DNA from: Candidatus Oxydemutator sp.
GTDB taxonomy: Bacteria; Pseudomonadota; Gammaproteobacteria; Poriferisulfidales; Oxydemutatoraceae
Reading direction: 5' to 3'
Assembly: GCA_965203445.1 (NCBI GenBank)
Contig: OZ241883.1
Location: forward strand, 1,376,001 to 1,440,000
Length of the DNA stretch: 64,000 bases
In this document: in pieces, positions 55,104 through 56,479 of the stretch
How positions within the stretch are numbered: position 1 is the first letter of the stretch
Layout: every line of letters starts with the position of its first letter
Position numbers and translations under genes: made by a program
Notes under the pieces: model-generated
Told to the model about the DNA's origin: nothing
Database searches by the model: none
Seen by the model: only the letters and a program-made list of their open reading frames with translations

Positions 55104-55140
55104 GAGCGCAGGTATCCCGTGCGGGGCTGTGGCATACTAT

Positions 55141-56433
55141 GGGAATTATATACTTTAATCCGTGAGGATTAGAGTATCCATTTGACGTTTCACAGGCCAA
55201 GTAACCTTGCAACCTCCACGTCCGGCAGCCCTATTCCCGAAGGCCAATATGTTCAACGCGGCATTGACATCCGCATTATCCCGATGACCGCAAGCACTAC
55301 ATAGAAACGCCGCCTGCGTCTTTCTGTTCTCTTTATCCACGTTCCCACACTCGTTACAAGTCTGGCTCGTATATGCGGGATTGAGGTAATTCGTATTCGT
55401 CTTGTAATCCAGGCACTGGTGAAACTTGCCCCAACAAGACGCCAGAATTGCGCGGTTCAATTCAGCCTTGGCGCGGACGTTCGTTCCGGGATTGTCCTTC
55501 GTTCCCTTGGCGCTTCTGGTCAGGCCCCGGTTGTTCAACTTCTCCAGGTGAACCCGCGAATACCTGTTCGCTATATCCCTGCTTACATGATGGCACCAGT
55601 TGTGCCTTACATGATGTATCCTGCCACTCGTTACGGCATGCAACTGCTTCGCGCGCAAGTAACGGTTGGACGGCCTTGTTCCATGCTTTCTACTGCCGCA
55701 CCTGCGCCGCGCCATCATCCTCTGATAACGGCGCTTGCGCGCCTCTAATCGTTCTCTATCCGGCAACCGATATACAGAGCCATCCGAGCAGGTTACCTGA
55801 CCGACGTTGCGATCTATGCCGACCTCCCCTTCAGGTTTCACTGCTTCGGCCTGTTCCACTTCATACACGATATACGCATACCACTTGCCGCATTCCCGCT
55901 TGACCGTGCCGGACTTGGGCACACCGTCCGCATACGGGTTGTGGCCAAGCAGCAGCACCTCGCCTATCTTGGCGATATAGAGATAACGTCCCTTCAAACG
56001 GAACGCTCCGGCACATAACGGGAAACTATCGGGATGGACATACCTGGCATGGAAACGCGGCAGGCCGCCTTCCTTCTTATAGAATTGCTTGTATGCGGTC
56101 TCTATCGGCTTCAACGCCTGACGCACTATCGGCATCGAATACTCCTGCAACCAGGGCGCATAATGCCTGCGTAGTACGGTGAACAACTTACCCATCGAAT
56201 AAAACCTGTAATCTACAATTCCCAATGCAAGATTTTCCTTCCCATAGTAGATATATTCGTCCCGCAACTTGCCCACAAAATGGTTCCACACGTAACGGCA
56301 CGCACCGGCGGTTCCCGCCAACTTGCGCGCCTTGGCACGAGTGCTGGCATGTAGCCTGTATCGGATTGTTCGATGGACTTTCATTTGTCAAGTTGTCTAT
56401 ATAATCTCCCTACGGATTTAAAGTATAATTCCC
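55141..56433 (-). mobile_element. Non-autonomous tnpB-carrying element bounded by imperfect terminal inverted repeats (GGGAATTATA...) and a probable target-site duplication
   Basis: Left end GGGAATTATATACTTTAATCCGTGAGGATTA versus right end reverse complement GGGAATTATACTTTAAATCCGTAGGGAGATTA. Flanks CATACTAT and TATACTAC. Lower GC than the host. Sits between divergent mreB and gatC. Confidence 0.75.
55155..56384 (-). CDS. tnpB: TnpB RNA-guided endonuclease
   Basis: N-terminal YRL..GACRYVWN, RuvC-I GIDRN, RuvC-II HLEKL, Zn finger CNECG/CSACG, RuvC-III NADVNAALNI. Confidence 0.95.
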   Translation of the reverse strand: MKVHRTIRYRLHASTRAKARKLAGTAGACRYVWNHFVGKLRDEYIYYGKENLALGIVDYRFYSMGKLFTVLRRHYAPWLQEYSMPIVRQALKPIETAYKQFYKKEGGLPRFHARYVHPDSFPLCAGAFRLKGRYLYIAKIGEVLLLGHNPYADGVPKSGTVKRECGKWYAYIVYEVEQAEAVKPEGEVGIDRNVGQVTCSDGSVYRLPDRERLEARKRRYQRMMARRRCGSRKHGTRPSNRYLRAKQLHAVTSGRIHHVRHNWCHHVSRDIANRYSRVHLEKLNNRGLTRSAKGTKDNPGTNVRAKAELNRAILASCWGKFHQCLDYKTNTNYLNPAYTSQTCNECGNVDKENRKTQAAFLCSACGHRDNADVNAALNILAFGNRAAGRGGCKVTWPVKRQMDTLILTD

Positions 56434-56479
56434 TATACTACCAACGAACGGCGGCACGTGCAAGTGATCGCCGTGATTA

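Follow-up and report, generated by a model that had tools for sequence, protein, structure and literature searches.

Why a TnpB nuclease should ride in a DDE transposon at all is a question raised by an element in the genome of Candidatus Oxydemutator sp., a gammaproteobacterium. The element lies in a stretch of 64,000 nucleotides (contig OZ241883.1, positions 1,376,001 to 1,440,000 of the forward strand), which is called the window in the following and whose numbering is used for all coordinates unless a genome position is indicated. The role attributed to TnpB is to help IS605 and IS607 elements, whose excision leaves no scar. IS200/IS605 and IS607 elements have neither terminal inverted repeats (TIRs) nor target-site duplications (TSDs); they insert beside a fixed short motif, which is also the target-adjacent motif (TAM) of the nuclease, and they are moved by a Y1 or a serine TnpA. 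None of these features holds for the element considered here, which occupies 55141-56433 (1293 bp), contains tnpB as its single open reading frame (ORF) and is bounded by TIRs and by an imperfect TSD of 8 bp.

An earlier note, made from the letters of the window, had proposed that TnpB was captured by a non-autonomous element of the DDE type. The analysis presented here bears out this proposal and names the family. The TIR/TSD architecture and its link to IS1595 transposons are held with very high confidence, and the element is likely to be a non-autonomous member of an IS1595-family (ISNwi1-like) lineage that carries only tnpB and a predicted omegaRNA. As to what TnpB does for such a lineage, a homing role is proposed below with considerably more caution.

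Boundaries, sibling copies and target-site duplications

The outermost 10 nt of the element, 55141-55150 (GGGAATTATA), are an exact inverted repeat of 56424-56433. When the two 40-nt ends are aligned with gaps, they reach a score of 18, against 3.9 ± 1.7 (maximum 15) in 2000 shuffles, and the similarity spans about 35-40 nt, interrupted by three small indels. The right-end (3') TIR at 55141-55170 (minus strand; ...CGGATTAAAGTATATAATTCCC on the element strand) doubles as the last ~30 nt of the predicted omegaRNA scaffold, and the left-end (5') TIR at 56410-56433 (minus strand; GGGAATTATACTTTAAATCCGTAG) differs from it by a 2-nt deletion and a 1-nt insertion; the tips of the TIRs (~25-30 bp) are of the type GGGAATTATATAC... 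The 8-bp flanks at 55133-55140 (CATACTAT) and 56434-56441 (TATACTAC on the plus strand, GTAGTATA on the element strand) are identical in register at six of eight positions, and both are taken in by the coordinates 55133-56441 under which the element had been reported before. The earlier note had read from this locus ends that stay similar in inverted orientation over ~35-40 bp, flanks that share ATACTA like a decayed TSD, a full set of three RuvC acidic residues, a tnpB stop codon inside the TIR and the absence of tnpA; these readings stand, and no tnpA was found inside the element.

A tblastn search of the genome, a single contig of 2.38 Mb (63.6% G+C, rated 100% complete), returned 13 full-length copies plus a few fragments. 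In all 13 the ORF is intact (406-426 aa) and tnpB is the only gene, and all 13, when considered in tnpB orientation, start with GGGAAyTAyrTA and end with ...TATAnTTCCC. Siblings with perfect TSDs, which the earlier note expected of a DDE-type element, are the most frequent class: the duplication matches at 8/8 positions in eight copies, at 7/8 in two, at 6/8 in two (one of them the copy in the window) and at 4/8 in one. Over the 13 copies the 8-bp flanks agree at 94 of 104 positions, a value reached in none of 100,000 permutations, with mismatched pairs of flanks averaging 2.9 of 8, and the next octamers outward of the TSDs agree at 33 of 104. With 77% A+T, the duplicated octamers contrast with a genome that is 64% G+C.

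Two copies, at 25458-26828 and 1131112-1132482 of the genome (G000:C1), are 99.9% identical and occupy separate sites, with the TSDs CTTTTTTG (8/8) and ATCATAAC/ATTATAAC (7/8), and another pair of copies is 97.3% identical. Since near-identical copies are found at different sites, movement of the family is, by this measure, recent, and very recent for the 99.9% pair. By contrast, the particular copy in the window is judged to be old, because its TSD matches at 6/8 positions, there are indels in its left TIR and no sibling is closer to it than 77% identity, and it may no longer be mobile.

The site before insertion is preserved in relatives. In the genomes G001-G003, which belong to the same genus, mreB and gatC are adjacent without the element between them. 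Homology between G001 and the window ends at 55140, the last base before the TIR, and the empty site reads ...GTGGCATACTAT|CAGCG..., with a single octamer CATACTAT and not the two ATACTA motifs that the earlier note had considered as a pre-existing pair. On this comparison, the element entered the mreB-gatC spacer after the split from its same-genus relatives. Contigs from two runs of one sample cover both junctions without differences and contain no empty-site joint, a result that is uninformative on excision. In G002 the spacer (L029, about 1230-1400) carries G+C-rich, imperfect short repeats of a GGCGCTTTTGCGGCG-like sequence, of which there are none in the window or in G001.

The genome also contains short TIR-bounded derivatives of 163, 180 and 786 bp (G000:C1:113341-113503, 757576-757755 and 247602-248387, respectively), as well as internally deleted copies and orphan 3' remnants resembling a guide RNA (G000:C1 about 2222918-2223400, also at 481776 and 1480661). 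Some of these short derivatives and remnants retain the omegaRNA region without a full tnpB.

Outside this genome, a pattern scan of species-representative genomes yielded 77 loci with relatives at 47-62% identity, in records titled Gammaproteobacteria, Arenicellales, Candidatus Porisulfidus, Candidatus Oxydemutatoraceae, Thiotrichales, Chromatiales and, in one case, Opitutales. When the genome's own copies and the relatives are taken together, 45 distinct elements passed the TIR score, with boundaries set by TIR similarity alone, and the octamers flanking these boundaries match at 8/8 in 23 elements and at 7/8 in 7. In a plasmid collection, 382 records matched, all at ≤35% identity, and this TnpB clade was not found there; a metagenome scan gave four loci, all of them distant.

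The TnpB protein

The tnpB gene (55155-56384, minus strand) is intact and encodes 409 aa with the RuvC residues D191, E281 and D369 and a zinc finger, and its TAA stop codon (55155-55157) lies within the TIR. The protein scores 194.6 bits with the NCBIfam model guided_TnpB (cut-off 100), 59.4 with Pfam Cas12f1-like_TNB (cut-off 26.3) and 25.6 with HTH_OrfB_IS605 (cut-off 21), and it falls slightly below the cut-off for Pfam OrfB_IS605 (28.4 against 30.5). Its best solved relatives are TnpB-type chains, with which D191, E281, D369 and the zinc-finger motifs align; from this alignment, and from the residue numbering of ISDra2, we take the three acidic residues to be the catalytic positions. D191, E281 and D369 as well as C343, C346 and C365 are invariant in 13/13 paralogs, and C362 is present in at least 90% of the copies. 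Among the paralogs dN/dS ranges from 0.12 to 0.24, values that indicate purifying selection on tnpB. The protein is predicted to be an RNA-guided, TAM-dependent nuclease, the one indirect pointer to cleavage being a flank bias that was found post hoc and that is described below.

The IS1595-family partner

Searches of the complete genome gave no match to Y1_Tnp (PF01797) and none to Resolvase (PF00239), the domain of serine recombinases, whereas 6 and 12 of 14 control genomes, respectively, were matched; the Y1 or serine TnpA that the earlier note had named as the competing type of partner was thus not found in this genome. What the genome does encode is one full IS1595-family DDE transposase, its sole one (DDE_Tnp_IS1595, PF12762, 1.3e-43; Zn_ribbon_IS1595, PF12760, 1.6e-07; NCBIfam transpos_IS1595, 205.9 bits against a cut-off of 75). 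This transposase sits in an element of 2616 bp (G000:C1:1978350-1980965, corresponding to L026 350-2965) with a 25/25 TIR (GGGAATTATATACTTAAATCTACAA) and a perfect 8-bp TSD (ATCAGAAA), and it fits the autonomous IS1595-like partner sharing the TIR that had been anticipated. Among the enzymes searched for (IS1595, Y1 and serine), it is the only candidate transposase found. The outermost 13-15 bp are identical between the DDE element and the TnpB elements, and the TIR of one TnpB subfamily (c174540/c975197/c2133948) matches that of the resident DDE element at ~23/25 positions. TnpB elements outnumber the autonomous element in the genome 13 to 1.

The autonomous element carries a passenger of its own, a protein of 436 aa in which an N6/N4 DNA methylase is fused to an HNH nuclease, and homologs of this cargo adjoin the IS1595 transposase in 7 of 30 DDE loci of relatives (among them L118, L121, L125, L130, L132 and L139). 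A partial second match to an IS1595-type transposase (42% identity, 167-aa open frame) lies at G000:C1:512990-513433.

The same pairing recurs in related genomes. Nine transposase-bearing elements of relatives have TIRs of the GGGAAyTATrTA type that match at 23-25 of 25 positions, together with perfect 8-bp TSDs, and measure 1271-1410 bp, or 2498-2866 bp when they carry cargo. The inner part of the TIR falls into several subtypes, such as ...AAAATGCACCA, ...ATTCTGCACA, ...AAAATCyGCA, ...TTAATGCC and ...AACTTGACA, each of which occurs in DDE and TnpB elements alike. In a sample of the order, IS1595 transposase homologs were detected in 27 of 41 genomes and TnpB (E ≤ 1e-60) in 16 of 41; the transposase is present in all 16 TnpB-positive genomes against 11 of the 25 TnpB-negative ones (Fisher 1.4e-4, a test that overstates the association, the genomes being kin). 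None of 30 DDE-centred loci has tnpB inside the DDE element, and the two kinds of element, as far as their gene content and ends tell, are separate autonomous and non-autonomous partners.

One of 129 TnpB loci departs from this separation. At L086 (1224-3738), one outer TIR pair encloses both tnpB and a transposase gene of the IS1595 type, which is 30% identical to that of the resident element; there is no matching TSD, and the abutting inner ends appear truncated and fused. The locus may be read as two adjacent elements that have fused and, as a single case, points to a possible route to an autonomous element with both DDE transposase and TnpB.

A predicted omegaRNA running through the 3' TIR

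For the guide RNA, 63 distinct related 3' ends were aligned, and named helices were tested by pair counting, shuffles and slid-partner controls. The predicted scaffold core (55141-55245, minus strand) comprises four helices, P1-P4, and is based on a minimum-free-energy fold and on covariation. In P1, GGGAAU (55233-55238), which is situated within conserved ...GN... codons, pairs with AUUCCC at the TIR tip (55141-55146), the six bases with which the element ends, ~90 nt downstream. P2 pairs GACGU (55218-55222) with ACGUC (55184-55188), and P3 is a hairpin (55194-55215) with the core CAAG-GUUA-CUUG (55198-55209); like P1, both have the support of fold and covariation. The terminal hairpin P4 (55150-55177), whose 3' arm is the inner TIR, comes from the fold and is predicted in nearly every copy. 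The minimum-free-energy fold of the window's own 105 nt gives exactly P1-P4, and the hairpin that the earlier note had drawn at 55150-55177 is reproduced in it.

Across the 63 sequences, 97.8% of the P1 cells are paired and 13 cells are changed on both sides, which none of 500 shuffles reaches. The states found are GGGAAU/AUUCCC (39), GGGAUU/AGUCCC (7, with one wobble), GGGACU/AGUCCC (3) and GGGAAU/AUUUCC (3), with GGGAAC/GUUCCC (copy c895624 of this genome) and GGGAUU/AAUCCC occurring once each and a few cells mismatched. The double changes fall mostly in one clade and are counted as ~3-4 independent events. In other clades the GACGU/ACGUC of P2 is replaced by CACGU/ACGUG or CGCGU/ACGCG, and for the 4-bp stem of P3, 15 different sequence combinations that pair fully were counted in 73 sequences. 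For P1, P2 and P3 together, 88.4% of 930 cells are paired and 79 are changed on both sides (0/500 shuffles), with slid partners pairing at ≤49%. RNAalifold run on the raw MAFFT alignment returns only 8 pairs, as indels break the columns, and an Rfam scan of the locus with E up to 1 matched no family.

Because the structure contains G-U pairs on the tnpB-sense strand, a sense RNA is favoured over a feature of the DNA. An omegaRNA that runs across the 3' TIR, as the earlier note had supposed, and has the same sense as tnpB is probable from the covariation. Since P1 pairs the TIR tip, the scaffold would end at the tip of the transposon and the guide would start with the 8-nt TSD. The predicted guide segment is 55121-55140 (minus strand; 5'-AUAGUAUGCCACAGCCCCGC on the element strand, with an assumed length of ~16-20 nt); its first 8 nt are the right-end copy of the TSD (55133-55140), and the sequence beyond the TIR differs in every copy. 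Over the 45 elements, mismatches to the consensus number 42 in the right TIR and 76 in the left; the stronger conservation of the right TIR is only a hint, given that detection favoured consensus-like right ends. In the TnpB guide RNAs treated by Yoon et al. (2023, PMC10711439), the terminal scaffold bases are described as forming a pseudoknot with an upstream base, and P1 would be the counterpart of that contact.

A candidate TAM and a possible homing role

Of the 30 elements whose TSDs match at 7/8 or better, 21 have a G directly 5' of the left TSD (position -1 in tnpB orientation), 6 have an A, 3 a T and none a C; C is likewise never found at -2, and -3 is A in 14. Relative to flank composition, at least 21 G has a probability of 1.6e-7 and the lack of C at -1 or -2 one of 1.3e-7, both computed post hoc. 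At the corresponding position 3' of the right TSD, C is found in 5/30, so that there is no enrichment of C on that side. In 10 DDE-only elements, oriented by the transposase gene, position -1 is G in 3, A in 3 and C in 4 (TnpB against DDE-only elements: Fisher 0.002 for C and 0.06 for G). A symmetric preference of the transposase cannot give a flank signal specific to one orientation, whereas a TAM read on the empty allele can, and the orientation-specific G upstream of the 5' TSD is regarded as a candidate TAM. On the element strand, the empty allele of G001 reads CGCTG|ATAGTATGCCAC, which is a G followed by the match to this copy's predicted guide. Where the element is present, the TIR tip CCC comes directly before the target, and these are the bases avoided at -1 and -2.

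These features suggest the following sequence of events. The IS1595 transposase, supplied in trans, would bind both TIRs and insert the element by way of an 8-bp staggered cut. The complex of TnpB and omegaRNA would recognise the unoccupied allele by a TAM ending in G followed by the TSD and the flank, and would cut it, and repair off the occupied copy would restore or spread the element. The occupied site would be spared from cutting, because the target there follows the TIR tip CCC; at the left junction, just 8 nt of guide match would be available. We regard a homing role together with such a TAM as plausible rather than probable. In its complete form the proposal is a tentative one: TnpB and its omegaRNA may constitute a homing or retention module of an IS1595-type DDE transposon that duplicates a variable 8-bp target, with a guide that starts with the TSD, a short TAM that ends in G and excludes C at -1 and -2, and the tip CCC as an anti-TAM. 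If this were true, the outermost TIR bases would be under three constraints at once, namely transposase recognition at both ends and omegaRNA pairing, and both the three-way covariation of the left TIR, the right TIR and the GGGAAU of the coding region and the excess of one orientation relative to the flank among surviving insertions would be explained.

Counter-evidence and alternative explanations

Several observations weigh against this account. At the locus itself, the left TIR has indels, the TSD matches at only 6/8 positions, and the right TIR agrees with the resident IS1595 TIR at 20/25, the inner parts being different. In the wider set, 15 of the 45 elements with boundaries set by TIR similarity have flanks that match at 6/8 or fewer, and one scan found no GGGAATTAT-like TIR pair in 13 of 58 full-length loci of relatives; for many of these 13, a 3' end with a tip of the GGGACTTAT type or of another variant was later found. 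On the side of the RNA, the fold z-score of this single sequence is only -1.5, and many of the covarying cells come from one clade, titled Arenicellales, so that independent events are far fewer than cells. The TAM signal was found post hoc, its DDE-only control comprises just 10 elements, and an A excess directly after the right TSD (17/30 at +1) is unexplained. IS1595 transposition and TnpB cleavage are, moreover, predicted activities here. Finally, a review of 2026 (PMC13565253) makes the point that a homing nuclease would contribute little in cases where a double-strand break is left by excision.

The last point also lends itself to a different explanation, in which the architecture is as described and TnpB is a mere passenger that aids neither retention nor spread of the transposon. 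It might be a nuclease acting selfishly, serve as a regulator recruited by the host or take part in defence, and its flank-derived guide would have no role in homing. DDE cut-and-paste elements may indeed gain little by restorative homing (PMC13565253), and the methylase-HNH fusion in 7/30 DDE loci indicates that cargo capture is general in the IS1595 lineage. A passenger of this kind does not readily account for a catalytic triad that is invariant in 13/13 copies with dN/dS of 0.12-0.24, nor for compensatory changes that maintain the structure of the omegaRNA, the TIR tip included, nor for an orientation-specific G without C 5' of the TSD that is absent from DDE-only elements, nor for the 13 to 1 excess of TnpB elements over the autonomous element; this explanation is considered unlikely.

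It is also conceivable that not the IS1595 enzyme but some other transposase, either lost or of an unrecognised type, moves the TnpB elements, and that the shared TIR reflects common ancestry or recombination instead of current mobilisation in trans. The inner TIR of most TnpB subfamilies is unlike that of the resident DDE element (20/25 for the copy in the window), tnpB lies inside none of the 30 DDE loci, and the genome scan covered IS1595 and no further DDE families. However, the terminal 13 bp and the 8-bp TSD are common to TnpB and IS1595 elements both in this genome and in relatives, matched inner TIR subtypes are found in both kinds of element, and all 16 TnpB-positive genomes have the IS1595 transposase, which makes another mobilising enzyme very improbable.

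An ordinary IS200/IS605 (IS1341-group) or IS607 tnpB element, moved by a Y1 or serine TnpA and with end similarity that merely stems from subterminal hairpins, is hardly credible, for although the protein is assigned by NCBIfam and Pfam to TnpB in general and hairpins do occur near the ends, the complete genome has no Y1_Tnp and no Resolvase match where control genomes do, 30/45 elements have true TIRs with variable 8-bp TSDs, the insertion sites share no constant motif of four or five nucleotides, and the protein stays under the NCBIfam cut-offs for IS200_TnpB (136 against 425) and IS607_TnpB (89 against 350). Both families were rejected as a home for the element: for IS200/IS605, TIRs were found in 13/13 copies and TSDs of at least 7/8 in 10/13 with no Y1 TnpA, and for IS607, TIRs and TSDs were found with no serine recombinase.

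Relation to known systems

The ISNwi1 group of the IS1595 family has 8-bp TSDs and ends of the form ggnnatTAT, and some of its members carry passenger genes; these properties of the group are reportedly given in ISfinder and by Siguier et al. in 2009. The ends described here start with GGGAATTAT, which presumably fits that consensus. The partner resembles the group in its DDE_Tnp_IS1595 domain with an N-terminal zinc ribbon, its TIRs and its 8-bp TSDs. Unlike the group, the element in the window has no transposase and carries tnpB and a predicted omegaRNA instead, so that its 3' TIR is part of a structured RNA. With the IS1341 group of IS200/IS605 and with IS607, the element has in common a single tnpB and a predicted omegaRNA overlapping this gene at its 3' end and terminating at the boundary of the transposon, as well as, in prediction, a guide derived from the flank and terminal scaffold bases that are paired upstream.

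Another relevant comparison is Fanzor, which is said to reside within cut-and-paste transposons with TIRs and TSDs, an observation credited to Bao and Jurka in 2013. According to Yoon et al. (PMC10711439), Fanzor is a TnpB-type nuclease in TIR/TSD transposons, often non-autonomous ones, with a guide-RNA boundary adapted to the ends; a short, fixed TSD forms part of the scaffold, and in Fanzor1 the pseudoknot has been lost. The likeness to the present elements thus lies in a TnpB-type nuclease that is carried by a TIR/TSD transposon and whose guide-RNA boundary is fitted to the transposon ends. Unlike the eukaryotic or viral Fanzor systems as described there, the elements retain a helix of the pseudoknot type, which would be formed by the TIR tip, and a variable 8-bp TSD that would start the guide. 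Among the bacterial cases found, this lineage is the closest structural parallel to Fanzor-bearing TIR/TSD transposons.

Capture of bacterial TnpB by DDE elements with TIRs is in itself already known. Altae-Tran et al. (2023, PNAS, PMC10691335) describe six DDE-associated TnpB branches, DDE-1 to DDE-6, all with inverted terminal repeats, along with solo tnpB copies flanked by near-identical ends that are taken to have moved in trans; the only partner named in the main text is IS630, to which DDE-6 is linked. The review of 2026 (PMC13565253) lists ISL2, IS630 and IS1031 as DDE partners, calls such associations rare in prokaryotes and, in the portion bearing on them, offers only conjecture. In common with the DDE-1 to DDE-6 branches, the present lineage has TnpB within an inverted-repeat transposon, the 3' end of tnpB near the transposon end, and solo copies. 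It differs from these branches, as their main-text description has them, in that the partner is of the IS1595 family, the TSD is 8 bp long and variable in sequence, and no element among the 30 DDE loci combines transposase with tnpB, the exception being the fused L086 among the TnpB loci. IS1595 is mentioned nowhere in the main text of PMC10691335; its supplements and Fig. 4 were outside the search, so that an overlap with DDE-1 to DDE-5 is possible. Literature searches likewise found no link between IS1595 and TnpB, although the same supplements, outside those searches, could name one.

Relative to the literature searched, what appears to be new is that the partner belongs to IS1595, that autonomous and TnpB-only elements are strictly separate, that a variable 8-bp TSD would open the guide, that the predicted guide-RNA scaffold, with its covariation, overlaps the TIR, and that the flanks are asymmetric. 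The lineage is a compact, multi-copy bacterial case with an identified partner transposase, exact boundaries and an empty allele that occurs naturally in a sister species, and it bears on the question of why TnpB rides in DDE transposons. The predicted structure illustrates how a transposase-binding TIR and a guide-RNA scaffold could share the same bases. Together with a guide-RNA model that offers testable compensatory pairs and with a candidate TAM, the features of the lineage open the question to standard assays in E. coli.

Neighbouring genes and a probable composite left end

The element is situated between mreB (54060-55103, minus strand) and gatC/gatA (from 56480, plus strand). Between its left TIR and tnpB lies a second, inner TIR-like sequence (56385-56409, minus strand; GGAGATTATATAGACAACTTGACAA; genome position 1432409, minus strand), which directly precedes the tnpB ATG. 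This sequence belongs to another TIR subtype, and its spacing to the ATG is the same as in copy c825338. It is probably a relic of an earlier left end of that other subtype, and the element seems to have gained new outer ends, which would make its left end chimeric.

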